Notes under the pieces: generated by a model
Told to the model about the DNA's origin: nothing
The model's database searches: none
The model's input: only the letters and a program-made list of their open reading frames with translations
Position numbers and translations under genes: made by a program
NCBI GenBank assembly: GCA_003144275.1
Contig: NJBF01000002.1
Span: 90,001-122,000 of the forward strand
From: Candidatus Heimdallarchaeota archaeon B3_Heim
GTDB taxonomy: Archaea; Asgardarchaeota; Heimdallarchaeia; Hodarchaeales; Hodarchaeaceae
DNA length: 32,000 bases
Reading direction: 5' to 3'
Shown here: positions 1 through 25,488 of the stretch, piece after piece
Layout: every line of letters begins with the position of its first letter
Position numbering within the stretch: position 1 is the first letter of the stretch

Positions 1-372
1 AATGTAGGGAGTTTTCGAGTTAGTGCTCAGTTACCGCGTGTCTTAGATGTCTCAACTCCAACACTTACCCCTCCCGCGTTAGAAGGCTGGGCGAAATTCT
101 GGGATGGATTTCTGTCAGGCATGACGATTGCGGCGATAGGAGCGGCTATTGCTTCGTTCTTTGTTTTTACGTTTCTGAAAGAAAGTTGGTATGGAACCAA
201 AGCGGTTGTTTTGGATAAAGCCGCGGATGATTCTCTCTTTAAACCCCAAAGTTTGGAAAGACATGAGGATAGGTTGCAATCGCGATACTATCGCAACCAA
301 CAAAGTTACCAGAAAAAACGCACTTGGTTACAGAAAATTAAACGAATATTAGGATTTACTGATCATGAATAA
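1..372 (+). CDS. C-terminal part of a membrane-anchored protein (5' truncated by window edge)
   Basis: The frame of ORF 121..372 is open back to base 1 (NVGSFRVSAQLPRVLDVSTPTLTPPALEGWAKFWDGFLSGMTIAAIG...). It shows a Pro/Thr linker, one TM helix and a basic tail. Confidence 0.75.
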   Translation, partial: NVGSFRVSAQLPRVLDVSTPTLTPPALEGWAKFWDGFLSGMTIAAIGAAIASFFVFTFLKESWYGTKAVVLDKAADDSLFKPQSLERHEDRLQSRYYRNQQSYQKKRTWLQKIKRILGFTDHE

Positions 373-592
373 AGAGAATTTCACTTCTGCTGGGGCGCTT
401 ACCAGCGCTATTATTGGCTCTACCCTCTTAGGAGTGTTTTTGGGGTCCCGCTCTGGTGGGATTTATGAATTCGAGATTGGGAACAATTTGCTAACCCTGC
501 TTCAGCTGGTTTCAATGATATTCGCTTTAGCGTTCTGTGGTTATTTTTGGCTGGAAAACAAGAAAATATCAAAAGAGATGAAAACAAAATGA
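365..592 (+). CDS. Small two-helix hydrophobic membrane protein (75 aa)
   Basis: Two hydrophobic segments. Overlaps the upstream stop and is coupled to the next gene by ATGA at 589-592. Confidence 0.75.
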   Translation: MNKENFTSAGALTSAIIGSTLLGVFLGSRSGGIYEFEIGNNLLTLLQLVSMIFALAFCGYFWLENKKISKEMKTK

Positions 593-2115
593 TGCAACAA
601 GAACTATTTACGGACTTAGAGACCTTTTATTATTCTCTTATTGCCATGATCCAGGAAAATGCGGTTCCGTTGATCATTGGATTCGCATTTCTCTGTTATT
701 TTGGGGCCAATCAATGGCGGAAATCACGTGATTCGCAGCTCAGAAATGTGCGTGAGCATTGGAAAGCGATTACCTCCAAAGCAACAAAGATTTCCTCAGC
801 ATTTAAAGGCAGGATTGGACTCGTTGAAACGGCTGGCACCATGGAGCTGGAAGGTGATATCTATCTAATTGATTCCGTGACGAATGATGAGTTAATCGAT
901 TCTGAACGGGTGACAGCGTTACGATTAGAGCTTACACAAGAACAAATTCTCCCCAATCTAGCTGAGAATGAAATTTGTTTTGAGAAATATGAGTTTCGTG
1001 CGCGAAAAGAAAACAAGGACGGCCTTCGGATTGACATCACTAAGGGATCCCTCCAAGAACAACTACAACTACGCTTTAAGGATGAGAAGGAGGAGAAATT
1101 CCGTAAACCTGGTAATTGGGAGTTGAAGGATCGCTGGATTGTCAAAAAATTCACCCGCGTGTTGCCGACCAAAAATGATACGTATGTGTCATTAAGAAAG
1201 ACTCCAAAAGGAGGAGAAATAATTGCATTTCGGCGGCAGGGGATTCAGGAACATGAAACAATTCTCTCTGAAGCGACTCCTCTACCATTAATCGATCTCG
1301 ATCCGAATGTCACCAAGGGGCATCTTCAATTAGCTATGTTTGGATTAATCATCTATGAATTCCTGTTGATGTATACTATTTTTGCGGAACTGGATCCTAC
1401 TTTTCTGCTAGATCGAGCCACCATCCCTTGGTATTTTGTACTAGTGGTCGCGTTTGTAGGAAAATATTGGGTAGACAAAACAAAAATAGCTTATTTTGCG
1501 TATTACCGTGCGTATAGTGGTGCAGAAGAGACCTTCAAGTTGCGTGGTGTCGCAGGCGAGATTTCAACCTACACCACCAAGGTATTTGAAATTGAGTTAC
1601 ATGCCCACCCCGCCATCCCCCTAGCGAATTTACTGAAGTTTAACCCTGAAGATATCAAAGATGAGCGAATATCAGGGTTAGAACAGCGTGTCACCAATCT
1701 TAGTGCCAAGCTTGCCTCTGCCAAGTCGAAACATGATCAGTTATTATCAATTTTACAACATAAGGATCAACAATTAGATCAGTCACGAGAAAAGCATATC
1801 GAAGCATTTGATGATGGAGCCATTTTCGCGTTAACTACTTACCGAGTCAAACAACTAGAGGATGATGGAAAAACTCCGCAAGAATACGTGCAAAAACAAC
1901 AAGGGACTGATACTCTCACGTGGTTCAAAGAAATTAAACCCTTGCTTTTTCTCATTGTCATCGGGGTAGGGGCATTTTTTCTGATTACTAACTTTCTCCA
2001 ATGGTTCCAGGAGATTCAACTAGGTGGCACAGGTGAGATTTTTTCGACTCAATTCATTCTCGGCCTGATTGTCTTATCCATTATCCTATTTTTCCTATTG
2101 CGGTCATCAAAATGA
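589..2115 (+). CDS. Multi-pass membrane protein (about 5 TM) with soluble domain and coiled coil
   Basis: ORF 547..2115; probable start 589 (ATGA overlap). TM segments AVPLIIGFAFLCYFG, LAMFGLIIYEFLLMY, IPWYFVLVVAFVG and two at the C-terminus. Coiled coil LEQRVTNLSAKLASAK. Confidence 0.8.
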   Translation: MMQQELFTDLETFYYSLIAMIQENAVPLIIGFAFLCYFGANQWRKSRDSQLRNVREHWKAITSKATKISSAFKGRIGLVETAGTMELEGDIYLIDSVTNDELIDSERVTALRLELTQEQILPNLAENEICFEKYEFRARKENKDGLRIDITKGSLQEQLQLRFKDEKEEKFRKPGNWELKDRWIVKKFTRVLPTKNDTYVSLRKTPKGGEIIAFRRQGIQEHETILSEATPLPLIDLDPNVTKGHLQLAMFGLIIYEFLLMYTIFAELDPTFLLDRATIPWYFVLVVAFVGKYWVDKTKIAYFAYYRAYSGAEETFKLRGVAGEISTYTTKVFEIELHAHPAIPLANLLKFNPEDIKDERISGLEQRVTNLSAKLASAKSKHDQLLSILQHKDQQLDQSREKHIEAFDDGAIFALTTYRVKQLEDDGKTPQEYVQKQQGTDTLTWFKEIKPLLFLIVIGVGAFFLITNFLQWFQEIQLGGTGEIFSTQFILGLIVLSIILFFLLRSSK

Positions 2116-2140
2116 AAAGGATGGTATAACAAGGAGTTAA

Positions 2141-2668
2141 ATGAATAAAATGATGCGACAAGATACGTTAGCCGAATTACAGGCTTGGGCGAAAGCTGCG
2201 AAAGCTGCTGGTGAGGATATTGCACGTTCTAAAGAGGAACTCAAGCGGATCATAGACATGCTTGTCTATGACCTCATAGATGATCCCAACGAGAAGGATG
2301 AAAAGGGGAACCCCATTATTCGCGAAGTCACGGTCCAGGATATTTTCTCACATCTACTTTTGTTAGTGATGCAGGACGAGAAGTTTCGTAAAGGGGTGCC
2401 CTCAGGGCTCATTCAGAAGAATATTACCATGATCGGAATCACCCGCCGGTTTGAAAAACGGAGTTTACGGTTTTCATTTGAATTCTTGAAAGATTGTTTG
2501 AAACAAGAAATGGCTCCAATTCTGCACAAAGCATATCCTGCGTGGTCTAGTCTCACTGGTGGCGCTCAAGGACACATGGTTACCGCACTTGTGCAAAAAT
2601 CCAAAGATATCCACCGAACACCCGAGGAAGAAAATCTTCGTGCGATGTTTAAACAACCCACGGATTAA
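2141..2668 (+). CDS. Hypothetical alpha-helical protein (175 aa)
   Basis: AAGGAG RBS upstream; lies within the operon. Confidence 0.75.
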   Translation: MNKMMRQDTLAELQAWAKAAKAAGEDIARSKEELKRIIDMLVYDLIDDPNEKDEKGNPIIREVTVQDIFSHLLLLVMQDEKFRKGVPSGLIQKNITMIGITRRFEKRSLRFSFEFLKDCLKQEMAPILHKAYPAWSSLTGGAQGHMVTALVQKSKDIHRTPEEENLRAMFKQPTD

Positions 2669-2685
2669 AATAAGGTTCAAAACCC

Positions 2686-4554
2686 ATGACCGAGGCAATT
2701 ACTCAAGCGGAATTAGAGAAGGTCAGCGAGGGAGAACGAGGTGCTTATTGGACCCGTCCATTCATGCTTTTAGAGAATGATCTAATCATCCAAGAAGAAA
2801 AGAAAAAAGTCAAGCTCCGCACCGAGGGAAAACTATGGCGGAGAAATCTTACTCCTGCTCTTCTGGCTGAAGTAAATCAAGCGTATGAAAAAGGACTTAA
2901 TACAATTATTCCCTTGTCGGGACTTCCTGGGCTAGGGAAGACGGAAAGTGCTCGAGCATTAGCTGTTTTTTGTCGTGATGCTGCCGAGGAGGCTTTTGGG
3001 AGATCTAGGATTTGGTGGAATTTTGGGTTTCAAGAAACCGTGAATAACGCGGTTGACTATCAAGAGGGAGATATTGTCGAACAAGATGAAGAACAACGTG
3101 CGCAAGGGATGGATTCCAAAAGTCTTATCATTGCTATTTCAGATCTTCAGGAAATTGCATTTCGAAAGAATAAAATCACCTATATTGTGTCATCTGTGCA
3201 TGCTAAATTAGTGCGTGGAGTGGCTCATGTTATTCTTGAGGCATGGGGGGGCAATTATGAATCCAGAATTTGTTTACTAAAAGTTTATTCTGCGATAACA
3301 GGTCTTCCTCTGGGTTTTGTGAAAATTCCTCTTTTACCTGCTGATCATCCTGCGGTCATCGAACATCAAAAAAAAGAAACGACATTCAAAACAGGCATCC
3401 TAAGTCGCCATGGGTATACTTCTGTTAAAATCGATCAAAAACGCTTTCAGAGAGATATTCAAACACTCACAAAGCAAATCTTTGGGAAACATCCTGTAGA
3501 ATACTCCGATTTATCTGCTTTTGAAAAGCGCCGTATACATAGATACCAGGTTGAGAGACTCAAAACAGATCTAGTAAGAGCGGAAATAGCCGGATCTGAA
3601 CAATATCAAAAACGGGTATTGACTGAGGTATGGGCCCAAATTTTAGATTTCAAAGATTCATACAAAGATATCCTAGAACTAGCCAAAGTCGAAGACAAGC
3701 TGCAGAAAGAGGAAGAGAAACAAATGCAACACGAGGAAGAATTACAGATCATTCAAGCCCAGCGTGAAAACCTTATTCCTGAATTAGTCGAGGCGTGTGC
3801 TAACAAATATCTCCATCAAAAAACCAAGAATGTCCAAATACGGATCTTTTTTGAAGAGCGAGGTATTCATAAAGACAATTTAAACTACTGTTTGGCCAAG
3901 ACGTGGGATAGAATAATAGAGTTAGAAAATTCATTCACGGCCTCTATAGGACAGACAGGCAGACAGGCATTACAAAATGAAAACCTAGCATTCACTCTCA
4001 AGAAAAAGATCGAAGACCCTGATTTCATTAATTCCATGATTCAATGCTTTCCTCATACGACAACGAGAATTAAGACCAAGAAATTACAGGAAAAACACTT
4101 TGAAGCCTGGGTGTGGTATTACAGAGATCATACTTCAGTCGATATGTTGAAGGATCAATGGGGAATGAAATCCAAATCCACATTCACTAATACCTATGAT
4201 CAGGGAGGTTGGTTTGCTGTTGTAAAGGAAGAAATTCTTGGCCATCTAGTCGAAGACACGCTTGTAGAAACATATTATGACGGATTTCAAGTCATAGGGG
4301 GCAATACTCAACCTGATTTAGTGAAAGCTGATATCCAGGTCGAAGTTAAAGCTCGGACCCGGAGAGAACCTCCCAAAACAGACATGTTTAATCAAAATGA
4401 ACTTCAGCATGTGAAAAATGGAGGAAACTTAGAACTCTGTCTCGTCTCATTTCAACCTGGACAATGTGTGTTAGAAATATATGCCATTACTGAGATTCCA
4501 AAAGAGGACCTACCGGTCGATGACAAAAAAACGAACGTATCGGATAAAACCTGA
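2686..4554 (+). CDS. P-loop ATPase fused to C-terminal PD-(D/E)XK nuclease domain
   Basis: Walker A IIPLSGLPGLGKT; Walker B-like DIVEQDEEQ; FRKNKITYIVSS segment; central coiled coil; C-terminal QPDLVKADIQVEVK motif. Confidence 0.75.
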   Translation: MTEAITQAELEKVSEGERGAYWTRPFMLLENDLIIQEEKKKVKLRTEGKLWRRNLTPALLAEVNQAYEKGLNTIIPLSGLPGLGKTESARALAVFCRDAAEEAFGRSRIWWNFGFQETVNNAVDYQEGDIVEQDEEQRAQGMDSKSLIIAISDLQEIAFRKNKITYIVSSVHAKLVRGVAHVILEAWGGNYESRICLLKVYSAITGLPLGFVKIPLLPADHPAVIEHQKKETTFKTGILSRHGYTSVKIDQKRFQRDIQTLTKQIFGKHPVEYSDLSAFEKRRIHRYQVERLKTDLVRAEIAGSEQYQKRVLTEVWAQILDFKDSYKDILELAKVEDKLQKEEEKQMQHEEELQIIQAQRENLIPELVEACANKYLHQKTKNVQIRIFFEERGIHKDNLNYCLAKTWDRIIELENSFTASIGQTGRQALQNENLAFTLKKKIEDPDFINSMIQCFPHTTTRIKTKKLQEKHFEAWVWYYRDHTSVDMLKDQWGMKSKSTFTNTYDQGGWFAVVKEEILGHLVEDTLVETYYDGFQVIGGNTQPDLVKADIQVEVKARTRREPPKTDMFNQNELQHVKNGGNLELCLVSFQPGQCVLEIYAITEIPKEDLPVDDKKTNVSDKT

Positions 4555-4774
4555 AGAGGAAGAGAGATGCCAAAGGAGATATTATGCTTCTATTAAAGCC
4601 AAAGTCCAACATTCCGATACGGGACGCATTACACGTCTAACCTGGCATTTATGTGAATTACATTATTTTCTTTTTTTGAGAGACCAAGGCCAAGGGTATT
4701 ATACGTGGTATCCTAAACATCCTTACAAGAAGGCCTTTGCGATTGATTATCAAATATTAGGAGATATACATTAA
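4520..4774 (+). CDS. Small basic hypothetical protein, possible Zn-binding (C...LCELH)
   Basis: ORF 4481..4774; probable start MTKKR at 4520, overlapping the end of the ATPase gene. Confidence 0.5.
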   Translation: MTKKRTYRIKPEEEERCQRRYYASIKAKVQHSDTGRITRLTWHLCELHYFLFLRDQGQGYYTWYPKHPYKKAFAIDYQILGDIH

Positions 4775-13137: not shown

Positions 13138-13667
13138 GATAATCTCGTCATTCTCACCCCAATTGCTTGATACAAAGGATATTTCTACTCCCAAACTTAA
13201 AAAGTTTTTCTTTAAAGAATCCCACAAGAATTATTAGCTGAATTGATAAAAATAATAGAGTTTTAAATAATAATGGAACGATTAATAATAGTATTCGATC
13301 TTTTTCTGCTGTGGACATATTTAGATCAAGCCACAAGTAATTTCTGCTCCCCTTTTTCAAAGATTTCAATCTGTTTTTCCAGTGCTTCCCGTATAAACCC
13401 CGACCAGTTCATAAACTGATAGTTTTGCATCTTTGCTAGCAGTTCCTCAGACACTCGTGTTGAGACCTGTCGATTCATCATTCACACGTCTGAGAGGTTC
13501 AGATCTAGTCTGCTATAAATGTGTATCGTTTACCAGCTTTTACAGGCATCATCATTTATTTTATGGTAAGAAATGTCATTTACCAGTAAAAACTCCCAGA
13601 ATAACGACTATGGTTTAAAAAGACTCGTTCTCTATGCCCTGTGTCTATCTAAAGAATTTTCCATGAA

Positions 13668-15194
13668 ATGGAAGTCAAAAGAATGGGTCTATTAAAGAAA
13701 TTTCGGGAATTCTCCGCGAAAACCAACTTTTCTCGGACGAATTTTCCCAAAGTCAAGAAGGCATTTGCCTTCCTACTGTTCTTGGTTTTTGCAGTCCAAA
13801 TCGTAGCCTTTGGCTCTTTTTTTACGCTTAATCTGACAACAAACCAAGCATTTGCTGTAAAATACGAGGAAACTGATATTCAGCAGTTCCTCGATAGTGA
13901 CATACGTAACGTAACCGTGATTCTTGCTGATGCGAGCGCGGTTGGTAGTGGTGCTAGGATAAGTAGTCCAATGACACTAACCCTCGACCGAATTGCCATA
14001 CGGGCGTCTACGCTGCCGTACCACCCGAAAGCATTTCCTACCTCATCCAGAATGTTACACAATATCTTCCCTACCTCCGAGTCCATTGCTCGTTTCGCGA
14101 CTCTTCGGTCCTCCCTTGGAGGGGGTGGCGCATCATTTCAGTCAATTGAAAGTATTAAAAGTATTGATGCCGTAAATGCGTTACTCAGTCTTGCGGAAGA
14201 TACAAACGCTACTTCAGAATCAGTTGGCGAAAACACCGTTAGTGATGAGAAATTTGCGGTAGAAGACCTTAAAGCTGAGACCGAATACAATATTAATACT
14301 ACTGCAGTGGTGACGGATCTAACCAGCCAAATCGGCTATCTTGAAAATCAATCGGTTGAATCCGCATATCAAGACTATGCGAGTTTCCTCTATTCGAATG
14401 ATAGTGTCGATGCGATTGCAGGGTCTGAAGCGGATGAAGAAAAAAATCATGATCTCTTGATTTCAGGATTTGACAACACAGAAGACGCGGTTTTAAGTAT
14501 TTTGAAGTCGAATATCGCTGCTGATTATTCCACGGCTTCAAATATCTTGACAGCCGATGACGTAACGGTTGTGGATTATGCGGTCCATCATGCCAATATG
14601 ACGAATTATCTTTCGTCCGCCCTCGTAGAAAAAGTGCGTGACGCCGTGACAGACTATGAAGACAGTCTTGAAGCGAATATCGCAGCCACAATTTTCGGTT
14701 TTAAAATCTACACTGCCAAAGCGGCTACCACTGCAGGGATTCTTGCGGGTTTTCGCTCTGCCGTGGGTCGAGTGATTAGCTTTGGTCAAGCGGTAGTCAG
14801 TACTCCTCTGCGAGAGGTCAAAAAAATCGGTGGGAGTATTAAACGCACCGTCACATCATACGCATCTAAGGTTGGTGAAGCTGGATCCAGCGCACTCAAC
14901 ATTGGAAAAGGGTTTCTAACGTCCGCTCTTTCGAAGCTGGGTTCAATTAGTAAGTCAATTGGCGATAAAGTGGGCAGTTTCGCTCAAAACGTTAAGGTGG
15001 GCGTCACTGGTGCTGTCAAAGGAGTCAAAGGCTTTGTATCCAAAAGTTTCAATGCTGTCCTAGGCTCTGTAAAAAGCCTGTTCAGTTTCATTCCGATGCT
15101 AATTCTGCTGATGGTAGGTGGAGTAGGCGCGGTGCTAGTTGTAATATTCCTTATGAACCGTAAACGTGCCCCTCCTGAGGTAATGCCCTACTAG
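13668..15194 (+). CDS. Type I membrane glycoprotein with 11-mer amphipathic repeats; candidate envelope/spike protein
   Basis: Signal-like N-terminus ending AFA; many N-x-S/T sequons (NLT, NVT, NAT, NTT, NQS, NDS, NMT); Gly/Lys-rich 11-residue repeats; C-terminal TM + RKRAPP tail. Confidence 0.7.
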   Translation: MEVKRMGLLKKFREFSAKTNFSRTNFPKVKKAFAFLLFLVFAVQIVAFGSFFTLNLTTNQAFAVKYEETDIQQFLDSDIRNVTVILADASAVGSGARISSPMTLTLDRIAIRASTLPYHPKAFPTSSRMLHNIFPTSESIARFATLRSSLGGGGASFQSIESIKSIDAVNALLSLAEDTNATSESVGENTVSDEKFAVEDLKAETEYNINTTAVVTDLTSQIGYLENQSVESAYQDYASFLYSNDSVDAIAGSEADEEKNHDLLISGFDNTEDAVLSILKSNIAADYSTASNILTADDVTVVDYAVHHANMTNYLSSALVEKVRDAVTDYEDSLEANIAATIFGFKIYTAKAATTAGILAGFRSAVGRVISFGQAVVSTPLREVKKIGGSIKRTVTSYASKVGEAGSSALNIGKGFLTSALSKLGSISKSIGDKVGSFAQNVKVGVTGAVKGVKGFVSKSFNAVLGSVKSLFSFIPMLILLMVGGVGAVLVVIFLMNRKRAPPEVMPY

Positions 15195-15221
15195 CTTCAG
15201 ATCCTGGAGATGTGAAAAAAA

Positions 15222-16124
15222 ATGCAAAATACTACACTCCGAAAAAGAAGAAGTCTGACAGTTTTTCCTGTCGTTTTTCTCTTTTTTCTCTCGGTTCTGG
15301 TGCCTGTGCTCGCGTCCCCCTATACTGCGGAAATCACCACGCTCACCCCCACTATTGATACCTCGACCTCTTCAACCTATGAAAAAACCATTGGCGTGAA
15401 GCTGATCTGGCGGATCAATTACGATAAAAGCCTCGAGAATTTTTCCACTATTTACAGCTATGTTTACTGCAAAGTGTCAGGCAAAAGCCCTATTTTAGCG
15501 GCGAGTCAAGTGACGGAAGGTGGATCTACTTATTGGTATACCAATTATACCTCGATTACCGAGACCCTGACATTAAATATCGATGAAGACTCGGTGGCTG
15601 GGCAAGATCTTTCTTCCGATGTGAAGATTGCGATCTATGCCGAACTCTACAATAATTCGATATCCGCGGCTAATAAGCTAACTTCCAAGACCGCATCGAT
15701 TTCCTATGGCAGTTTAGTGGGAGAAGAAGCCGCTGAGACCGCTGACAGGGGTCTCTGGGATTATGCGCTTTTAATCCTCATGGGTCTCGGCGCATTCGTA
15801 GTGCTCGTGTTTATCATCCTGGCTGGACAGCGGTATGTCATACCATGGCTAGGCTTAAGTTCCCCTCCCCGTAATACGTTAGATTATGGGGATCGAACAA
15901 AATGGGCTGAGCGGTATGGCCCTCGTGACAAAGAAGTTCTACAGGGTAAAAAGAAAGCTGGACAGTTCAAAGACATCGTTGATCCAGGACGCTCTCGGCG
16001 TATAGACCAGAGACAAACGCATCTTCACGGGAGAAAACCAGGGCAACTGCGACGATCACCTTCGAATCCCCGCAAAAAGATTCCTGACGCGGACCGACGT
16101 CCTCCGAAAGGGAAAAAGTGGTAA
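15222..16124 (+). CDS. Type I membrane protein: signal peptide, beta-rich ectodomain, TM, very basic cytoplasmic tail
   Basis: Hydrophobic leader ending VLA-S; Thr/Tyr-rich ectodomain with sequons NFS, NYT, NNS; TM ALLILMGLGAFVVLVFIILAG; R/K-rich tail. Confidence 0.75.
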   Translation: MQNTTLRKRRSLTVFPVVFLFFLSVLVPVLASPYTAEITTLTPTIDTSTSSTYEKTIGVKLIWRINYDKSLENFSTIYSYVYCKVSGKSPILAASQVTEGGSTYWYTNYTSITETLTLNIDEDSVAGQDLSSDVKIAIYAELYNNSISAANKLTSKTASISYGSLVGEEAAETADRGLWDYALLILMGLGAFVVLVFIILAGQRYVIPWLGLSSPPRNTLDYGDRTKWAERYGPRDKEVLQGKKKAGQFKDIVDPGRSRRIDQRQTHLHGRKPGQLRRSPSNPRKKIPDADRRPPKGKKW

Positions 16125-16127
16125 TTA

Positions 16128-16161
16128 TCTCCCTTTTTTCTTTTTCCCTCTTTATTTCCCA
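16128..16161 (+). terminator. Pyrimidine/oligo-T tract, archaeal-type terminator
   Basis: ATCTCCCTTTTTTCTTTTTCCCTCTTTATTTCCC directly after the stop at 16124. Confidence 0.45.
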
Positions 16162-16183
16162 TTATTGGAGGTCTGTCTAAGCC

Positions 16184-16615
16184 ATGTTTGAGTCTTTCAA
16201 AGAAAAAGTGCTTTCTGTTCCCAGAGGTGCTATGCTAGTGCCTAAACGCTTGTATAAGACCCTCATTACCTCAAAAGGAATTCTGACTACCGAGCGCGGC
16301 AAAGTGAACATTCACAAGAAAGAAGCGTTTTTTACACGCGAAGAAATCCTCAAAATGGAATCTAGAGCTCAAAGATTCCATGAACGAATTCAATCCGATC
16401 AAGTGGGTCTTCCTATTACTTTTGAAGAATTTGAACGCCTAGAAAGACGATCTGAATGGGATGAACTGCGGACCAAAAAAAAGAGTGGGACCCGGGTCAC
16501 TCTCTTAGCCACGGGATCCGAAGTGAAACGAGGTCTGAAACGGTCTGGTGTGATTCCTGGCTCCCGAAGGAAATCATTGAAACCTCCTCCTACTCAACTC
16601 AAACTGACTGACTGA
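16184..16615 (+). CDS. Basic hypothetical protein (143 aa), first gene of effector-like array
   Basis: GGAGG RBS; N-terminal VLSVPR resembles the array motif. Confidence 0.7.
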   Translation: MFESFKEKVLSVPRGAMLVPKRLYKTLITSKGILTTERGKVNIHKKEAFFTREEILKMESRAQRFHERIQSDQVGLPITFEEFERLERRSEWDELRTKKKSGTRVTLLATGSEVKRGLKRSGVIPGSRRKSLKPPPTQLKLTD

Positions 16616-16692
16616 ATTCTCTCTTACTGATCTGAGCTGTGGTCTCAAATCAAAGAAAAGAGACTAAATTTCACGAGAATGGATGCTGAATA

Positions 16693-17331
16693 ATGGTCGA
16701 GAACACAACTATCATTTTAGTATTAGCGATAGGAGGTCTTGTTCTCTTATATTTTCTTCTCTATATCCCTTTCACGCGAAAAGTCGCCTGGAAAAGTGTG
16801 GTCATTCCTGCTACGACCTTGAAAAACATGCGAAATAAACGGAAACAGCGGGCAGAGGTGGCGTATGTCTTCGATTTCAATCACCAACAAAACCGAGCTG
16901 AACGCATTCGCTTTCGCAGAGGCACTCGCGATTTTGTCATTCCCCGTGCTAATTGGGATGACGAAGTGATTTTTCATACGCATAATAAAGTCAGCAACCC
17001 TGTAGAGAATGTTCTGCGGGAACGACCTTCGGGAGGCGATCTTGTCCAACTCATCAGTTCGCCTCGCCTCCAAGATGGGCTGATTACCCCCTCAGGGCGG
17101 CTTCTCATCTATGAAGAAACCTCCCATACGGATCCTCGGAAAGTCAAACGGCTCGATCAAAAAGAGGTCGAGATTCAAAAACGGGTATTTCGGAAAGAAG
17201 TTACTCCCACAAAAGCGAGGGAAGTGAATAAACGTTTTTTGAGCGAAGTGAAGAAAGCGGGGATTCGAGTGCGTGAAGTCTCCCCGAATCAGGCATTGAA
17301 ATTGAGAACAGAGGTACGAGAACATGGTTGA
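16693..17331 (+). CDS. TM leader + JAB/MPN(JAMM)-type metalloenzyme domain
   Basis: E55, H95-x-H97 and P-S113-x2-D116 match the JAMM metal-binding set, with an elongated loop. N-terminal TM helix. Confidence 0.7.
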   Translation: MVENTTIILVLAIGGLVLLYFLLYIPFTRKVAWKSVVIPATTLKNMRNKRKQRAEVAYVFDFNHQQNRAERIRFRRGTRDFVIPRANWDDEVIFHTHNKVSNPVENVLRERPSGGDLVQLISSPRLQDGLITPSGRLLIYEETSHTDPRKVKRLDQKEVEIQKRVFRKEVTPTKAREVNKRFLSEVKKAGIRVREVSPNQALKLRTEVREHG

Positions 17332-18904
17332 CTCATTACTCGTTATTGGTGGATTATCAGGAGGAGTCATCCTAGGACTAGTTTTGCTCTGGCTGTTAGG
17401 GAAACCAGTTTTTTCCTTACCGCTACTCGCGGCTCCTCGGTGGACAAAAAAACACCTTTACGTCATCGCTCAGCAACATAATATCAAGAATCGGTCCAAG
17501 ATGTCTCGAGACGCGTTGTTACGAAAAACTCGAGGATTAAGACCCCGCTATCCCCCAACAAAAATCCCTTCACGAGTTCAGAAATTATCAGTTAAACCCC
17601 AAATCCGACCAAAACGTCGCCCAAAACAACGGGGTTTTCACAAGGGAATGGATCTTCATACCTGGGTAGTGGAGAGAAATAGACACTTGAAGGAAATTGA
17701 GAAAATTAAAGAGCCTCAAAAACGGATTCAAGCGGTGAATAAGCTTCAAAAAAATGCGGACAAATATAGTCAATCCTCCTGGATGACGCCTGACAATCCG
17801 TATGCTAGAGTCCGTAGAGATGCTAAACGAGAGATCCAACAGCATAAGATTGAGGTAAAACAACGAGCTAGAATAACTACTATTAAGACGGAAAAAGACC
17901 CTGAACAGATTCTCAAATTCACTGATGAAGAATATAAAATCTGGTTGAATGCTCTGTCGGCTAAAGACCGTGAACACTATCCTCATTCCCATCATGCTTA
18001 CATGAATAATTATTATCTGTATGAAAATCCCAAGAAAATCAAATATCGGTTCATGGATACAGGTCTTTCGGCCAAAGAAGCGGACTATCAGGTTTTCTTA
18101 ACAGGAAAAGAGGAATGGGAGCGACAAAGATATCCTAAACGTGTAATTGAATATGAAAAAAATCTGCGCTTATATAAAGATGGGCGGATCGCCAGGTATC
18201 GCCCCAAGGATAAACAACCTCGGGCCAGTGATATGAGCACAGCCACCCCTGACAAACGAATCGACGCCATAGTTGAAGGAAAAGCCATTCGGGGAGCTAC
18301 GCGAGAAGAACGACGCATTGCTCATGATATTCGGAAAGCAGGGGAAACAGGCGCTAAATTTGGTACGGGAGGATTTTTGAGTAAACGGCAGAGTCAAATT
18401 ACAAAACTCACGGCTGAAGAACGTAAGCTTGTCAAACGAGGGATGACTCCGATTCAAGCGAGACGATTCACCGAAAGAATCCAAAGTGCGGGGGCGGATC
18501 TTCAAACCATAGACTTACGTTCGTTAGATATCGAGTCTCAGGAGGGAATGGAAGGCTATATGGAAACACTCGCGTCAGATCAGTGGGAGGCAGCATTTGG
18601 AGGGGTGTATGGTCCCCAAAAACGTTTCAAAATTCTTCCTGCCAAGTTTGCACCTAAAGTTGTATTTCAAAACCTCGGGTGTGGGAAAGGCTCAATCATG
18701 GCCGTAGTTGAAGATCAGGGCGATTATTCACAACAACTGATAACCAAGGCGACCTACCAAGTAAAAGAAGCGGAGGCGGAAAACTTGGGCGATGGGACTA
18801 TCATGGTTAAAGGAAAAACCAAAGGCAATCAGGAATTTAACCATTTTGTGCAAACGACTGACAGTTTAGAGGGAATCAAGAAAAAAGTAAGGAAAACAAA
18901 GTAA
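17324..18904 (+). CDS. TM leader + Rho_N/HeH-like nucleic-acid-binding motif + multi-domain basic cargo
   Basis: TM, then LLAAPR; KKHLYVIAQQHNIKNRSKMSRDALL fits the Rho_N-like pattern; second internal LPAKFAPK motif. Confidence 0.7.
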   Translation: MVDSLLVIGGLSGGVILGLVLLWLLGKPVFSLPLLAAPRWTKKHLYVIAQQHNIKNRSKMSRDALLRKTRGLRPRYPPTKIPSRVQKLSVKPQIRPKRRPKQRGFHKGMDLHTWVVERNRHLKEIEKIKEPQKRIQAVNKLQKNADKYSQSSWMTPDNPYARVRRDAKREIQQHKIEVKQRARITTIKTEKDPEQILKFTDEEYKIWLNALSAKDREHYPHSHHAYMNNYYLYENPKKIKYRFMDTGLSAKEADYQVFLTGKEEWERQRYPKRVIEYEKNLRLYKDGRIARYRPKDKQPRASDMSTATPDKRIDAIVEGKAIRGATREERRIAHDIRKAGETGAKFGTGGFLSKRQSQITKLTAEERKLVKRGMTPIQARRFTERIQSAGADLQTIDLRSLDIESQEGMEGYMETLASDQWEAAFGGVYGPQKRFKILPAKFAPKVVFQNLGCGKGSIMAVVEDQGDYSQQLITKATYQVKEAEAENLGDGTIMVKGKTKGNQEFNHFVQTTDSLEGIKKKVRKTK

Positions 18905-18914
18905 AAGAAGGTGA

Positions 18915-19388
18915 ATGAAAATATCTAGCTATTCAGAGGTAATATTAGTATTTGCGATTTTTGGTGTGGGTTTTCTAGCACTTGTCCTTCTGTGGAAATT
19001 GAAGAATCCTCATCAATCAATTTTATACTTGCCCGGAGTTCCGCGCATTTTTGCGCCCAGGTTTCATTATGACGTTTCAAATTTAACTCGTGAGGAATTA
19101 GAGTCTCGATTTCGTCAGGAGACAGGGCTGACGGGCGTTTATGCTGATAAAGAAAAACGCCGGCGATTATCGAGAATTTATATCCAGCGTGAGAGAGAGG
19201 CGCGTCTCGGGAGACGGACTCAACAATTTCAACCAAACCAGACCTCTGTCGAAAGAATGGGTCTTCCTAAAGTGGATAACGAGACTATGGAAATGTCCAG
19301 GATTAATATCACGTGGAAACAAAAAGCAGCAGCGCCTCGTGTTCTCCACAAATTGTCCAGAATACAAAGAAGAAAGGAGTTGAAATGA
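18915..19388 (+). CDS. TM-leader family protein with basic helical cargo
   Basis: LVLLWKLKNPHQSILYLPGVPRIFAPR leader; GGTGA RBS. Confidence 0.75.
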   Translation: MKISSYSEVILVFAIFGVGFLALVLLWKLKNPHQSILYLPGVPRIFAPRFHYDVSNLTREELESRFRQETGLTGVYADKEKRRRLSRIYIQREREARLGRRTQQFQPNQTSVERMGLPKVDNETMEMSRINITWKQKAAAPRVLHKLSRIQRRKELK

Positions 19389-19389
19389 A

Positions 19390-19866
19390 ATGGTTGGTGC
19401 AGTAGAACTAACAATTATTGTGGGCTTAGGGTTAGCTGGTCTCGCGGCATTACTTCTTTTATGGAAGTTACAACATCCGCAGAGTAAGATGATGATTCAG
19501 ATTCCAGGGCTTCCTGTCATGCTTGCCCCGAGTAGATCGGAACGTTTCAAACGCTTTGCAGGAAGTACGGCTAGACATGGTTATGGGACAGTCCAGGAGG
19601 TTCGCAAAACAGATGAATATCGCCGTCTTCTGAACGTGAGTTCATCCAAGGCAGCGGAAGGCTCCTCACGCGTCATTCTAGAAGAATTTCATCAATCCCC
19701 TCGAAAGGACCAGGTTCGGATGAAACGCATGGTGTATTTAGCGTCTCAATCCGCCGCTAAAGGGTCTAGGAGTGAGCGGTTTTCCCCCGACACGCGTACT
19801 AAACTCGCGGATATCGCGACCGTTTATCAGGAAACCCATCGAGAAATGCGGGTCAAACCCAAATAA
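19390..19866 (+). CDS. TM-leader family protein with basic cargo
   Basis: LLLLWKLQHPQSKMMIQIPGLPVMLAPS leader, clearly paralogous to the leader of 18915. Confidence 0.75.
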   Translation: MVGAVELTIIVGLGLAGLAALLLLWKLQHPQSKMMIQIPGLPVMLAPSRSERFKRFAGSTARHGYGTVQEVRKTDEYRRLLNVSSSKAAEGSSRVILEEFHQSPRKDQVRMKRMVYLASQSAAKGSRSERFSPDTRTKLADIATVYQETHREMRVKPK

Positions 19867-19903
19867 AAAGGAAAACATGAATAATAGGAGTTGATAATTA
19901 ATT

Positions 19904-20371
19904 ATGGTAGAGGTTAAGGATTTAGTTATCATAGCTGGCTTAGCCATTGCTGGTATAGCCCTGTTTTATCTCGTTCAGTGGTATATAACTTATCGCAAGT
20001 TCAAACAAGGGTTCGATATTGGCATGACTATCGCTCAAGACGAGCGAACACAGACTGGCTTACGATCAGTTTCTGATCGTTTCAAACACTTCACCGCCAA
20101 AAATAATCCCCTTCGTGCTTCTCGGCAACGGTTGATTCAAGCCCCTCGTGTTCTGATCGATAATTTAACGAGAACAGAGCAAAGAAAATTGAGAAAGGAA
20201 ACCCGAGAATTCGTAAAACGTACTGATCCTAACTGGCAAAATTACTCGACTTTAGGAAAGCAAAGGGCAATAACGGCAGAGGCTAATAGAAGATTAAACC
20301 CCCGACATATTTCTGCTCAATTTGAATACGATCTCAAAAGAGAATATGACTTGATCAATAGAAATAAATGA
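19904..20371 (+). CDS. TM-leader family protein with basic cargo
   Basis: N-terminal TM; LIQAPR motif further downstream; AGGAG RBS. Confidence 0.75.
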   Translation: MVEVKDLVIIAGLAIAGIALFYLVQWYITYRKFKQGFDIGMTIAQDERTQTGLRSVSDRFKHFTAKNNPLRASRQRLIQAPRVLIDNLTRTEQRKLRKETREFVKRTDPNWQNYSTLGKQRAITAEANRRLNPRHISAQFEYDLKREYDLINRNK

Positions 20372-20380
20372 GCCGGGGGC

Positions 20381-20614
20381 ATGATTCCTATCCCTGATCT
20401 GTGGAGGGAAATGAAAGATCAGGGTTATACCCGATCAGAATTTGAGCGAGAATTATTCCGTTTGGAGAACGAACGGACAATTGACATACAAACTGCGTCT
20501 CAACCACGCTTTATATCTGACTCTGATCGAAATCTAGGCATCCCTCATCAAAGACGAGGGCATTTGAATTATGTTCTCTTCCGATACAATCCCAAAAAAC
20601 CAATGAGGCGATAA
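20381..20614 (+). CDS. Small winged-helix-like protein (77 aa)
   Basis: IPIPDLWREM...TRSEFERELFRLE...IDIQ pattern resembles wHTH domains; lies within the operon. Confidence 0.55.
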   Translation: MIPIPDLWREMKDQGYTRSEFERELFRLENERTIDIQTASQPRFISDSDRNLGIPHQRRGHLNYVLFRYNPKKPMRR

Positions 20615-20626
20615 TCCGAAGGTGAT

Positions 20627-21775
20627 TTGATGTTCGACCGAATCAAGACTTTTCTACCAACGATATTTGTCGCACCCAAAGTAAGGAAAATAACCAGCCG
20701 CCAGAAACCATTATCTGACTTTTTCCGCCGTTCTTCTGATCAAAGAAATCCTGTGACTCGAACCCTTCAGAAAATCCGAAATGATCTAACTAAGGAAGAT
20801 CAGAAAGAAGTAGTTATTCCCCAAAGAATTAAAGCTGATTCATTATTAAAACAAGCTAAACAGATTAAACTAAAATCAGATGAACGATACTATGTTTTTT
20901 ATGAAAATGACTATACTCATCGCCCTCAAATGACTGATAAAATAGCTCGATTACCAGATAAAATTAATGAGTCGAAATATCGATTTAATTTGAGATGGAA
21001 AGGAAAGAAAGAACCTGCTTTAGTTATTATTGCCGCTTCCAATGCGTCTGAAGCGAGGCGAAAACTCGCGGATCGCGGAAAAATTGATGTCCTTCTTACA
21101 GATACCGAATATAAAGATCGTAGAGAGATTAGAAAATTCGGGTTAAAATCTTATTATGAAGATGGGCAGTTTATTGGGTGGAGAGGCAAGATTAATCCGA
21201 AAATCTGGCAAGAAGTAACCAAATTTGGCCAGTTAACACAAGGTTCCGAATATTCAGCTGAAGAAAGTGCCGAATCTTGGCGGGGCAGAAGATCGAAGAA
21301 AGCCCAAATAAAGCGTGACCAAGCGACCAAGGCAACACAGCGATCTAAAGCGCATTGGGATGAAGCGACAAAGCTAGGAAAACAAATTCCTCTTGGTCAA
21401 CCTATTTTAGTCGGTCATCATTCTGAAAAAAGACATCGGAGACATATCGAAAGAATTGATAGCCATGGCTTTAAAGGACTAGAAGAACACAGAAAAGCTG
21501 AGCGTTTAACAAGACAGGCTGAAAACTTAGAATACATGGCGAGACAGAAAAAAGGGATAGCTGCACAACAACATGAAGCTCATAGAGATACAATTCGACG
21601 ACGTGTTAAACAAGGGAATACTCGAATATTCTTTCATGGAGCTGCTTATGGTGAGGGAACGGTGACTAAAGTATTCAAAAAATCTGCGAGAGTTAAATTT
21701 GATAAATCTGGCTTAGAAACCACAATTGATATGAATTTATTACAACCCGTGAATGGTTCAAAAATAAAGAATTAA
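20627..21775 (+). CDS. DUF3560-domain protein with C-terminal SH3/KOW-like barrel
   Basis: IPLGQPILVGHHSEKRHRR is the DUF3560 signature; C-terminal YGEGTVTKVFKKSARVKFD; N-terminal LPTIFVAPK; GAAGGTGAT RBS. Confidence 0.8.
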   Translation: MMFDRIKTFLPTIFVAPKVRKITSRQKPLSDFFRRSSDQRNPVTRTLQKIRNDLTKEDQKEVVIPQRIKADSLLKQAKQIKLKSDERYYVFYENDYTHRPQMTDKIARLPDKINESKYRFNLRWKGKKEPALVIIAASNASEARRKLADRGKIDVLLTDTEYKDRREIRKFGLKSYYEDGQFIGWRGKINPKIWQEVTKFGQLTQGSEYSAEESAESWRGRRSKKAQIKRDQATKATQRSKAHWDEATKLGKQIPLGQPILVGHHSEKRHRRHIERIDSHGFKGLEEHRKAERLTRQAENLEYMARQKKGIAAQQHEAHRDTIRRRVKQGNTRIFFHGAAYGEGTVTKVFKKSARVKFDKSGLETTIDMNLLQPVNGSKIKN

Positions 21776-21808
21776 AGTAACCGTATCAAAATCTCCGAGG
21801 TAAGCGAA

Positions 21809-22702
21809 ATGGACACCTGGACCATCATCCTATTGCTAATGTTCAGTTTATTGATTATTCTTCTTTTACTATTATTTTTCTCTAATCCGAATACTACCAG
21901 TATTTTGGGGATCCCTTTTCAGTTATTTGAAGCCCCTCGAAAGGTAGCAATCGGGGCGGTTAGACGCATTCGAAAGCGCAATTATATCGGCACAGGGGAA
22001 TATTCAGAGGCGTTTTTAGTTGATGATATGGTTGTTAAACGGAACCGAGAAAGGTCTTATTATAATCCCCGTCTCTATAAGAGAAGAGAATTTCTCAAAA
22101 AGTCCAAGGAGGAGATGAGTGGTGAATACAATCTCTATACACAATTAAAAAGTAAAAATTACACGCTGTTGCCTGAATGGATGCACCAATATCAGGGCAC
22201 TAATGCTCGGTATTACTTGATCCGTGAACCCGCGAAAATTCCTCTTCAGGAGGGCCAAGAAAAAAAATGGTTCCCTCAATGGCGAAAAAATGCTGTTTCA
22301 CAAAAAGCATACAATAAATTCTCCCTAGAATTGTTTCAGATTGCTAGGGATCATGGACATTTTGAAGATCGACTTCAGCCTGGATTGCGAGAAGATGGCT
22401 CATTATTCCTGTATGATTTAGGTCATTTTAAAGTGCGAGAGACCCTTGGCCATGATCCTGAAGAGAGGGAATGGAAACGCCTGGAAAGCTACTATACAAC
22501 AATGAATCGTCTAGATGGGTTGAGTGAACAAATCGAGCTTCCCTATACGATTCCTGACTTTGTCATCAATGATCATATTGGTTATTATAAAAGGGAAATC
22601 AGAGAACGAAAAGCCAAGGGCTATCCTAAAGGGATGCTTGAATATCACCAAAACGAACTTCAGAGATGGGAGCGAGTGAAACAGACGAAAGAAATAAGTT
22701 GA
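21809..22702 (+). CDS. TM leader + protein-kinase-like domain
   Basis: IGTGEYSEAF Gly loop, MVVK lysine, GEYNLY helix-C glutamate, EDRLQPG catalytic-loop variant and YDLG (DFG equivalent). Confidence 0.7.
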   Translation: MDTWTIILLLMFSLLIILLLLLFFSNPNTTSILGIPFQLFEAPRKVAIGAVRRIRKRNYIGTGEYSEAFLVDDMVVKRNRERSYYNPRLYKRREFLKKSKEEMSGEYNLYTQLKSKNYTLLPEWMHQYQGTNARYYLIREPAKIPLQEGQEKKWFPQWRKNAVSQKAYNKFSLELFQIARDHGHFEDRLQPGLREDGSLFLYDLGHFKVRETLGHDPEEREWKRLESYYTTMNRLDGLSEQIELPYTIPDFVINDHIGYYKREIRERKAKGYPKGMLEYHQNELQRWERVKQTKEIS

Positions 22703-22783
22703 TTAGTATGCTTGACAAATTGAAGGCACTGATACCGCCCATTCCTTTTTTTAAAGTCTCTGTCTGAAAGCCGGTGAAGAACT

Positions 22784-22826
22784 CTCTCTGGACGCTTTTA
22801 TTGAATATTGTAAGCAGCTCTTTGCT
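22784..22826 (+). repeat. Dispersed repeat A, copy 2
   Basis: CTCTCTGGACGCTTTTATTGAATATTGTAAGCAGCTCTTTGCT versus CTCTTTGGGCGCTTTTATTGAGTATTGTAAACAGCTCCTTTCT at about 9983. Confidence 0.75.
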
Positions 22827-23470: not shown

Positions 23471-24280
23471 GTGTCAATGATAATTGAAGACTTAACAATT
23501 TTAGGCCGAGCTGCACCTGATTTAATGAAAAGTAAAATGGTTAAAACATTTTGTGTTGCAGGATATTCTCCATCTAGGGGTTTCATTAGAGTGTATCCTA
23601 CGTCTATTGATTGCCCTATGAAATTTTGGAACGTTGTTAGGGTTCCATTAGAGCGAAATCTTCAAGATAGTAGGTTTGAAAGCTGGAAAATTCAAGGTTC
23701 AAAATCCGAATGGGATAATCTTGATAGTAAAATCGAAGAAATTGGTACATATCCCAAAAAAGAAAGACGACAACTTGTTTTCAATCTTGTTGATGGTTGC
23801 CGTAATGATATTAACGATGCCCATAGGAGTTTGGGAATTATTAAGCCCACAAAAATTAAGGGTTACTTTCAGGAACGAGAAAAAATATCAGAAAGCGAAC
23901 AAAAAACTCTTTTAGACTTTTTAGATATTCCAAAACCTAAAAATCATTGGATTAAAACAAAAGCTGAATATCAATTCATACCTTATATTAAATATACTTG
24001 TTCTGACTGTAAATCCAAGCAAGGGTATCATAATCAACAATTGCTTTCTATTGAAGCTTACGAATGGATGCGGAAACACCCTGATAATCTTGATCAACTT
24101 TGGGAGAATTTTCGAATCAATGATAAAGATTACGATGCATATTTATTCATTGGTAATCAAGCTCGTCGTCGAAACGCGTTTATGGTAATTAGTATTTTGA
24201 GATTCAAAAAATCTAATTATTCATTGTCACGGACAAGACCATTAATCCCTTGGAAAAAAGTAGAAAAACCCAAATCATAG
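23471..24280 (+). CDS. OB-fold/Zn-ribbon-like protein of the family commonly found next to DUF488
   Basis: FCVAGYS..RGFIRVYP, DSRFESWKI, SLGIIKP, YTCSDC...HN and LFIGNQ motifs; paralog of 26006. Confidence 0.6.
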   Translation: MSMIIEDLTILGRAAPDLMKSKMVKTFCVAGYSPSRGFIRVYPTSIDCPMKFWNVVRVPLERNLQDSRFESWKIQGSKSEWDNLDSKIEEIGTYPKKERRQLVFNLVDGCRNDINDAHRSLGIIKPTKIKGYFQEREKISESEQKTLLDFLDIPKPKNHWIKTKAEYQFIPYIKYTCSDCKSKQGYHNQQLLSIEAYEWMRKHPDNLDQLWENFRINDKDYDAYLFIGNQARRRNAFMVISILRFKKSNYSLSRTRPLIPWKKVEKPKS

Positions 24281-24315
24281 TTGTAAAAAGGATCTTCAGA
24301 CGGTCTTTAAAGAAG

Positions 24316-25488
24316 ATGGATTGGCAAATTGTGAGTCGTCGCCAAACAAAAGCTCTAGATGATTTTTTAAATAATTCTAAACGAGAAATTAGAAGAGGAA
24401 GTGTGGTATCAGGAATGAGAATTAAAATTACAAATATAGTTATACCGTGGTATGCACCACGTGAAGAAGTTGATAAGGAATTTCTTGGTGAATTAGCTGT
24501 AAGTATGGATAAGGATGGGCAATGGGATGATATAATCCTTCGTCATAATGAAGCTGGGGAATATGAACTCATCTCAGGTTTTCAAAGGCTTAATGCTGCG
24601 AAATCTTTGAAGTGGGAAGAAATTAATGCTAAAGTTCTCGATATAACAGAGAATGATGCAGCAGTTATGGCGTTAGAAAGTAATATTCTTCGTAGAGGAT
24701 TAAAAGAGATTGAAGAAGGGAAAGCAATTCAGAAAATGATTGACAAATATGGATATACACATAAACAGGTTGCAGAGAGATTAAGAAAAAGCCAAAACTG
24801 GATTAGTAATAGACTATCTTTGGCAATGGATATAACAGACTTAGTAAAAAAGGCTATGATTGATCAAAAACTATCTGTTACTCAAGCCATTGAAATTGGA
24901 AAACTTTCAAAAAAAGACCAAGATAAATTTTTGGCCATTGTTCTTAAGAAAGTTGAAGAAAACGATGGGAGGCCAATTTCTGTAGAAGAAACTAGAATTC
25001 TCCGTAAGCGTTTTACAAATGATACTATTTTTACAATTGGTTATAGTGGATGGGACATTGATGATTTTTTAAACACACTTAAAGATAATAAGATAGGTGT
25101 TTTAGTTGATATTAGAGAAAGTACAAAGTCCCAACGAAAACCTGAATTTAGTGGACGATTATTAGAAAAAAGAGTTAAGGAACTTGGTATAAAATACTTC
25201 GGTAGACCACAACTAGGGGTTCCTTGGGATATCCGTGCGGCAGTTTTTGAAAATGGCTTATCGTCTAATTGTTTTAAAGAATGGTACATTTGGCACGTTA
25301 CAAAAAGAGACGAGAAAAACAAAGCATTTGAAACAGCCAGAGAATTAAAAGATGTTGGAGCTCCCGCTTTCATGTGTATGGAACGTTATCCAAAACCGAG
25401 CGGAAAACAGGAACATTACTGTCACCGTGACTTTTTAGCTGAATTGATACTAAAGGAACAAATCTTTGAGAAACGAATCGATTTATGA
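24316..25488 (+). CDS. ParB/Srx + HTH fused to C-terminal DUF488 domain
   Basis: YELISGFQRLNAAK and ALESNILRRGL (ParB); AERLRKSQNWIS (HTH); TIFTIGYSG, LVDIR, LG..MCME and CHR (DUF488). ORF is open from 24250; 24316 is the probable start. Confidence 0.8.
   Translation: MDWQIVSRRQTKALDDFLNNSKREIRRGSVVSGMRIKITNIVIPWYAPREEVDKEFLGELAVSMDKDGQWDDIILRHNEAGEYELISGFQRLNAAKSLKWEEINAKVLDITENDAAVMALESNILRRGLKEIEEGKAIQKMIDKYGYTHKQVAERLRKSQNWISNRLSLAMDITDLVKKAMIDQKLSVTQAIEIGKLSKKDQDKFLAIVLKKVEENDGRPISVEETRILRKRFTNDTIFTIGYSGWDIDDFLNTLKDNKIGVLVDIRESTKSQRKPEFSGRLLEKRVKELGIKYFGRPQLGVPWDIRAAVFENGLSSNCFKEWYIWHVTKRDEKNKAFETARELKDVGAPAFMCMERYPKPSGKQEHYCHRDFLAELILKEQIFEKRIDL

Follow-up and report, generated by a model that had tools for sequence, protein, structure and literature searches.

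In phage T4, the unrelated internal proteins IPI-III and Alt have in common a short N-terminal leader, the CTS, which is soluble, ~10–19 amino acids (aa) long and cut by the prohead protease at Leu/Ile-x-Glu. Pleolipovirus-type membrane virions and haloarchaeal plasmid vesicles combine small genomes with a spike-like type-I membrane protein and inward-facing membrane-anchored proteins, while polymorphic toxin systems join a constant N terminus to a variable C terminus in tandem arrays that recombine at a conserved junction. Modular kinase, DNA-binding and other domains are also found in two kinds of protein from phages and conjugative elements, the Mu F (SPP1 gp7)-effector fusions and the polyvalent proteins (Iyer et al. 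2017, PMC5512222, where IPI and Alt are mentioned as well). Most of these are giant single bacterial polypeptides in which the delivery module is of the Mu F, portal or relaxase type, and recombination of small neighbouring cassettes has been proposed. The papers on Asgard viruses that we consulted describe tailed, icosahedral (double-jelly-roll capsid) and spindle-shaped viruses, with no array of this kind among them, and next to nothing is known of particle assembly or of the handling of host membranes by mobile elements in the Asgard lineage closest to eukaryotes. Here, we analyzed a 32,000-nt stretch of DNA from Candidatus Heimdallarchaeota archaeon B3_Heim (contig NJBF01000002.1, positions 90,001 to 122,000; "the window," to which all coordinates refer) that contains a 9.4-kb island with a row of genes, named below by their start positions, in which a constant N-terminal leader precedes variable cargos and a short A-P-[R/K] motif marks the junction.

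Like the T4 internal proteins, the products of these genes carry a short N-terminal leader on otherwise unrelated proteins of one mobile genome, and the cargos include enzymes and DNA-associated basic proteins, of the kind thought to move with the DNA. Unlike the CTS, the island leaders are mostly transmembrane (TM) anchors whose juxtamembrane segment is rich in proline and which end in an A-P-[R/K] junction, and the island has no capsid or protease gene. The modular domain content recalls the Mu F fusions and polyvalent proteins, and one protein from a relative of the island (L003_5978) fuses three units found as separate genes elsewhere; in contrast to those large polypeptides, the row in the island, which belongs to an archaeal genome, is made up of numerous individual genes, every one with a membrane leader of its own. 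As in polymorphic toxin systems, a constant N terminus meets a variable C terminus in a tandem array with recombination at a conserved junction, but no toxin, immunity or secretion-system family or domain was recognized in the island, its genes abut without small immunity open reading frames (ORFs), and the predicted topology keeps the cargos inside. Pleolipoviruses and plasmid vesicles are matched in small size and, by prediction, in the combination of a spike-like type-I membrane protein with inward-facing anchored proteins, with no similarity by sequence or profile and with their conserved NTPase and replication genes absent from the island. The statement of the first-pass annotation, made from the sequence alone, that no described system has such a layout is fair for archaea, whereas the principle is known from the T4 CTS, Mu F-effector fusions, polyvalent proteins and polymorphic toxins. 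With its TM-anchored leader and A-P-[R/K] junction, this hitherto undescribed family of Asgard elements represents an undescribed variant of the shared-leader/variable-cargo principle.

The exchange of cargos behind the leader is clearer in relatives of the element than in the window. In the lineage of contigs L004 and L006 (lineage B), a leader of the approximate form M-x-x-x-Y-L-I-A-G-G-G-L-L-L-F-A-x-x-L-L-W-I-x-G-N-K-P-x-F-I-P-D-F-P stands in front of at least five unalignable cargos, namely, the homolog of the 17324 protein, the kinase-like P0011, a 319- to 385-aa protein (L006_2896, P0044), P0045 and P0040. These leaders are 58–86% identical at the amino acid level and 57–86% at the nucleotide level, compared with 17–23% for the cargos, which is the background level. 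Genes with near-identical leaders occur in tandem (L092_78 with L092_919, and a pair in L093), and leader homology extends across four cargo families. A 53-column profile of the leaders of these four families, searched against the proteins longer than 100 aa among 5.8 billion, recovered only proteins of this element family (E-values of 1e-15 to 1e-5), with new cargos among the matches. Cargos are also exchanged behind the TM-less leader of the 20627 protein, which is kept before the DUF3560 domain in L003 and precedes a different, 279-aa coiled-coil cargo in L002 (L002_7840). The constant-leader/variable-cargo layout that had been proposed for the window is thus upheld in its relatives; on sequence comparison, the leader is a portable module that has been duplicated and recombined before unrelated cargos.

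Gene fusions and splits, as read from the aligned relatives, break at the junction motif. L003_5978 consists of the same TM-less leader as in the 20627 protein followed by a VP2-like segment, the C-terminal module of the 17324 protein and the 19904 cargo; in the window, this C-terminal module begins after an internal FAPK (APK at 18650–18658), while it is missing in L002 and lies in another protein in L003. Genes 18915 and 19390 correspond to the N- and C-terminal halves, respectively, of one L002/L003 gene and are separate TM-led genes in the window and in L006, and the fused L003 protein (L003_4246) retains APSRS at the joint. The kinase proteins of two lineages have APRKVAIAAVR and everything downstream in common and differ in their leaders, and the breakpoint of the 19904 cargo also falls at the motif.

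The motif itself reads hydrophobic-x-A-P-[R/K], mostly with a proline 3–7 residues upstream, and is placed exactly where leader meets cargo. It lies 10–20 residues past the TM helix in the 17324, 18915 and 21809 proteins; in the TM-less 20627 protein it is found at residue 16, in the 19904 protein at residue 80, and the 19390 protein has APS in its place. The distance from helix to motif is about constant (~10–20 residues) in most families, 19904 (~55) being the exception. These positions agree with the first-pass annotation for all six proteins, but the counterpart in 16184 is VPK-R at 16238–16246 and not the LSVPR given there. AP[RK] occurs in four of nine leader zones, a count reached in none of 5,000 shuffles for this motif, which was picked post hoc. 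The pattern P-x(3–7)-AP[RK] has a frequency of 0.036 per 1,000 aa in the long ORFs of the genome and is present within the first 100 aa in 7 of 15 element protein families; enrichment of the junction motif is ~100-fold. It also occurs in proteins without a window counterpart (L003_7046, L006_76, L006_4329 and the third gene of the distant contig L161). Since the A-P-R codons differ between instances and between orthologs, CGN/AGA changes included, while the peptide is kept, it is the peptide that is under selection; a repeat or a recombination signal in the DNA itself was rejected as an explanation on the same grounds. From these comparisons, we consider the portable leader and its junction motif to be real. 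Together, they offer a concrete, testable handle, and the leader can serve as a search key for an element family missed by current virus finders and Pfam.

Each of the six co-oriented ORFs 16693, 17324, 18915, 19390, 19904 and 21809 begins with one TM helix at residues ~4–27 (Kyte-Doolittle values of 2.35–3.45), as had been noted before. The short N-terminal flank has a net charge of zero or below, and the remainder is very basic (net +10 to +45); because of this charge distribution (the positive-inside rule), an N-out/C-in topology is predicted, in agreement with the inside-facing cargos proposed earlier. Membrane tethering with inward-facing cargos is a well-supported prediction. The leaders of 18915 and 19390 are 38% identical over 48 aa, in line with the paralogy already suspected, and the TM-less leaders have the form MFDxxKxF-P-xxx.

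Among the cargos, the 21809 protein has a bilobal protein-kinase-like fold that was confirmed by modeling: the AlphaFold2 (AF2) model has a pLDDT of 90.4, and all top Foldseek matches in PDB and AFDB are protein kinases (probability 1.0, TM-score 0.3–0.45). The expected catalytic residues are in place: the Gly-rich loop reads GTGEYS, the VAIK Lys (K77) is nearly invariant, and, across 21 sequences, the alpha-C Glu (E106), the catalytic-loop Asp (D187) and the Asp of the DFG position (D203, in DLG) do not vary. No catalytic-loop Asn is apparent, and Q190 is invariant. The protein has no Pfam match and no PDB sequence match, and the divergent family (23 representatives at 50% identity) mostly lacks the TM leader and has basic non-TM N termini. 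The contigs of two distant kinase relatives, P0012 and P0020, are too short to classify. In P0015 (701 aa), the kinase-like domain forms the C-terminal part behind an unrelated N-terminal region. The DUF3560 domain (PF12083) of the 20627 protein is secure at 77.3 bits against a gathering cut-off of 27.2 and has PHROG matches, whereas the Rho_N-like segment of the 17324 protein is sub-threshold, although it appears in the same place in two lineages, and this label is weak. No usable ESM Atlas match was obtained for the 17324 protein. A Fusello_VP2 domain (PF25632) is present in L003_5978 (residues 51–88, 39.6 bits), with no match in any window protein, and PADLOC and NCBIfam searches gave no matches.

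The 16693 protein had been labeled a JAB cargo, an identification for which we looked for both the E…HxH-x7-S-xx-D motif and a JAB profile match. E55, H95, H97, S113 and D116 are invariant in its family, but the spacing from HxH to S is 15, compared with 6–8 in the host's own JABs. There was no Pfam match for any of six family members and no PDB profile match, hhalign against the host Prok-JAB gave 5% probability, and the Prok-JAB model picked five other loci in the genome and not 16693; the label is thus unsupported by these sequence tests. The AF2 model of this protein is too poor for use (pLDDT 45.7), while its ESM Atlas model shows similarity to phage domains of the Mu F and minor-capsid (minor capsid protein 2) type (TM-score 0.61–0.65), a likeness that we treat as a lead only. 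Of what the first-pass annotation had observed, then, the TM leaders, motif positions, paralogous leaders, kinase and DUF3560 stand, the JAB label is unsupported, and the LSVPR of 16184 is replaced by VPK-R. Because their folds differ, the cargos were acquired and did not diverge from one ancestor.

The 17324 protein, compared with the 5.8 billion proteins, has only two relatives, on contigs L002 (12.6 kb) and L003 (14 kb), both of which are elements syntenic with the island. A profile of the 16693 family, with six proteins in total, led to L004, L006 and L007 (~56% identity), and L009, L092, L093 and L161 were further relatives; all of these contigs except L161 are syntenic with the island, and scans of JGI metagenomes and GTDB contigs yielded no relatives. 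The core gene order consists of a small ribbon-helix-helix (RHH) gene on the minus strand, type-I membrane proteins of ~500 and then ~300 aa, a 143-aa basic protein and a 212-aa N-anchored protein, after which comes a variable row of leader-bearing genes closed by the kinase-like gene (Table 1). L161 repeats the leader design with a TM-led kinase relative (P0020) followed by a TM-led gene (1465–1803) that has VDLLAPK ten residues past the helix; judged by this gene arrangement, the design extends beyond the close relatives.

Table 1. Features of the island and their positions in the window
Feature	Coordinates	Strand	Remarks
Whole integrated element	13317..22736		Limits from blastn DNA homology to L002 and L003 and from raised GC
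Small RHH-like regulator, left end	13326..13481	-	48% identity to L002_339
508-aa type-I membrane protein	13668..15194	+	N-terminal hydrophobic signal, ~420-aa ectodomain, C-terminal TM, short tail
Second type-I membrane protein, 300 aa, basic tail	15222..16124	+	Post-TM segment IPWLGLSSPPR; IPALGLRAPRSR in L004
143-aa basic soluble protein, TM-less N-terminal leader	16184..16615	+	Junction VPKR 16238-16249; APKR or APRR in relatives
212-aa N-anchored protein, motif-free	16693..17331	+	TM 16711-16767; most conserved gene of the element
526-aa N-anchored protein	17324..18904	+	Leader 17324-17440 (APR 17432-17440), Rho_N-like segment, long basic helical part, C-terminal module
157-aa N-anchored basic protein	18915..19388	+	LPGVP-RIF-APR 19029-19061; APR 19053-19061
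158-aa N-anchored basic protein	19390..19866	+	Leader paralogous to that of 18915; IPGLP-VML-APS, APS 19525-19533
N-anchored gene split by TGA (ORFs 19904 and 20381)	19904..20614	+	APR 20141-20149
382-aa protein, TM-less leader and DUF3560 domain	20627..21775	+	APK 20672-20680; DUF3560 residues 221-308
297-aa N-anchored protein-kinase-like enzyme	21809..22702	+	TM 21824-21880; APR 21932-21940; kinase-like domain residues ~54-296
Remnant of next leader-bearing gene, 19 codons (MLDKLKALIPP...)	22708..22767	+	Homolog of L002_9599

The island is foreign: its GC content is 44–47% over window positions 13.6–22.7 kb compared with 36% in the 3.95-Mb genome, its proteins have no second copies elsewhere in that genome, and its largest protein has no homologs among 60 relatives. 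RpoB of this genome is 89–90% identical to that of MAGs labeled Hodarchaeota or Heimdallarchaeota, which makes the host an Asgard archaeon. The island is thus a mobile element that has integrated into a Hodarchaeales-like Asgard genome and has partly decayed there. An in-frame TGA at 20369–20371 replaces an Arg codon that is present in L002, L003 and L009, and ORFs 19904 and 20381 are therefore a single interrupted gene; an ATG lies three codons 3′ of the TGA, where re-initiation might be possible. The gene cut after 19 codons at 22708 is the one placed 3′ of the kinase gene in L002 and L003, and as homology to the relatives ends at 22736, the right end of the element is truncated, the remainder having been deleted in this genome. 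The island ends carry no att-type direct repeats, and neither a tRNA nor an integrase gene was found. Contig pieces 90–99% identical to several parts of the island were recovered from a 2011 marine-sediment metagenome (run X1, scanned with window positions 13200–22800), including the 18915/19390 junction with a 9-nt insertion near 19357–19362, and none of the sequencing runs listed as carrying island pieces is RNA.

The 13668 protein has seven N-glycosylation sequons in its ectodomain, and sequon density in the ectodomains of the type-I membrane proteins is about twice that in the cargos. Its orthologs are 61–62% identical in L002 and L003 and 43% in L004; it has no family match, and an ESM Atlas look-up gave no usable match. 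On its architecture, it is a candidate envelope or surface protein. L002 (7198–7821) and L003 (5316–5954) additionally encode a third type-I membrane protein of 207–212 aa, with a signal, a beta-rich ectodomain and a C-terminal TM, that is not in the window element.

Our preferred reading, which we hold tentatively and at somewhat less than an even chance, is that the island is the structural/accessory operon of a virus-like element, in which the leader holds the cargos at the membrane for packaging and the motif is a common docking or processing site. In this operon, two type-I membrane proteins with glycoprotein-like ectodomains would stand at the head, followed by a row of very basic proteins that begin either with a homologous reverse signal-anchor (an N-out/C-in TM plus the proline-rich juxtamembrane segment) or with a short TM-less leader, both kinds ending in hydrophobic-x-A-P-[R/K]. 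The leader, recombined before a kinase-like enzyme, DUF3560, putative Rho_N-like and VP2-like DNA binders and helical basic domains, would keep these cargos on the cytoplasmic face of the membrane, the future inner face of a particle or vesicle; cargos that bind DNA or act as enzymes would then enter the particle or vesicle and move along with the element DNA, and the junction motif may provide the common site for docking or processing. If the cargos are packaged, the island would be a membrane-based analogue of the way in which phages address internal proteins to the virion. A membrane-particle structural/internal-protein module is the best reading because the operon opens with two surface-type proteins, its genes are packed closely, with starts that overlap or abut their neighbors, and there are VP2-like and Mu F-like hints, to which the PHROG relatives of DUF3560 may be added. 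It retains the constant leader, variable cargo and inside-facing topology of the interpretation first offered for this DNA, without its JAB cargo.

Several observations weigh against a virus-like operon. Searches of the element and its relatives turned up no capsid or portal gene and none for a packaging ATPase, replication or an integrase; for lack of such hallmark genes, the name "virus" is not established, and the 9–10 kb may be a module of something larger. The relatives all come from a few short contigs of metagenomes, and three IMG/VR scans, with the 17324 protein, the 21809 protein and an alignment, returned no relatives. A comparison of the island DNA with 83 genomes of the class, made to find CRISPR spacers, gave no spacer match; there were only short matches at chance level, and the three tested lay outside repeat arrays. 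The window copy is decaying, with a nonsense codon and a truncated right end, and the leaders within the window are only 23–38% identical to one another. Moreover, some leader-bearing proteins are without the motif (16693, L006_3856 and L004_2663), and others have the degenerate forms APS, SSR, SAK or AAKR.

The failure to find particle genes would suit a different role, in which the proteins are membrane-tethered host-takeover or maintenance factors that act at the host cytoplasmic membrane during carriage or replication, are never packaged and use the leader as a membrane address only. The predicted topology and the basic and enzymatic cargos fit this role equally well, and the island lies among defense-type genes (PIN_8, AAA_21 ATPase and ParB-DUF488). 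We nevertheless consider it unlikely, although the most plausible of the alternatives, since it leaves unexplained both the same junction motif at the N terminus of TM-less proteins and the two large surface-type membrane proteins at the operon head, and the VP2-like and Mu F-like hints favor virion proteins. The occurrence of the motif before every module, internal ones included (FAPK in 17324, HAPQ and AAPH in L003_5978, and APSRS in the fused L003_4246), together with the near-constant distance from TM helix to motif outside 19904, would be expected if A-P-[R/K] were a proteolytic site at which a host or element protease frees the modules from the anchor and from each other, as in polyprotein or prohead maturation and the cleaved T4 leader. 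Proline at P1 or P1′ is unfavorable for most endopeptidases, the internal copies are degenerate, and no protease was identified, the JAB reading of 16693 having failed profile tests and its model being unusable; cleavage at the motif is accordingly improbable. A similarly low probability attaches to the view that the leader has no dedicated function, the genes being a tandemly duplicated membrane-protein family with fast-evolving or replaced C-terminal parts and the motif a structural feature such as an interfacial proline segment and a helix N-cap. The AF2 model of the kinase protein, in which the motif starts a helix (residues 43–52) after a disordered linker, agrees with this view, as do the weak similarity of the window leaders and the loss of the motif in some orthologs (SSR in L002_5613 and SAK in L006_2462). 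On the other hand, the motif is also found where TM-less proteins begin and where internal modules meet, it is kept across lineages whose cargos are 30–56% identical and through synonymous changes, and the cargos are of different folds.

The proline segment (hydrophobic-P-x-hydrophobic-P-x3-A-P) allows a more specific idea, to which we give very little credence, that it mimics MIM2 and recruits host Vps4/ESCRT to the membrane for budding in the manner of a viral late domain. MIM2 is an ESCRT-III motif bound by the Vps4 MIT domain; its core regular expression has been published (PMC8970359) and is matched by LPGVP, IPGLP, IPDFP and FPEFP. Asgard ESCRT-III proteins bear MIM2-like proline motifs (PMC7240154), and the host has an ESCRT cluster (L130, G000:C10:33335-36526) that encodes two ESCRT-III proteins of 226 and 204 aa, a Vps4 of 380 aa whose N terminus carries the MIT domain, and the product of one further gene, all of which speaks for the idea. 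Full MIM2, however, continues from the hydrophobic-P-x-hydrophobic-P core into xxP-hydrophobic-P, with four prolines in all; the 18915, 19390 and lineage B leaders have the core with the third proline replaced and thus only three of the four, the core is missing from the window leaders 17324, 21809, 19904 and 20627, and the resemblance is to a short, low-information pattern. When the 18915 juxtamembrane peptide was modeled in complex with the MIT domain of the host Vps4, the score was 0.00 and no verdict resulted, which is evidence neither way. It is highly doubtful that inward-facing membrane proteins of an Asgard virus-like element bear, as a tag, a MIM2-like motif by which Vps4/ESCRT buds a particle carrying leader-addressed DNA-binding and enzymatic cargos; if they did, the element would combine a prokaryotic equivalent of viral late domains with a set of proteins resembling a tegument, and engagement of ESCRT by the proline segment would bear on the origin of virus budding. 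The 204-aa host ESCRT-III protein has GLPSPDI near its C-terminal end, followed by a MIM1-like helix.

Outside the island, a second stretch of raised GC (~42%) covers window positions 1–4774 and positions 7895–18000 of L090 (C80:79895-90000). It encodes two giant ORFs (1,711 aa and >1,650 aa), a 5-TM protein, a 622-aa P-loop-like protein and a basic 97-aa protein; none of its proteins has a Pfam family, and the stretch resembles neither the island nor its relatives. Two copies of DUF488 lie near the island (window 24250–25488 and L090 3681–4172), one fused to ParB-N/HTH_ParB and the other in a gene of its own that comes after a gene for a 787-aa MarR-type wHTH protein. The defense-type PIN_8 and AAA_21 ATPase genes lie between the two DUF488 genes.

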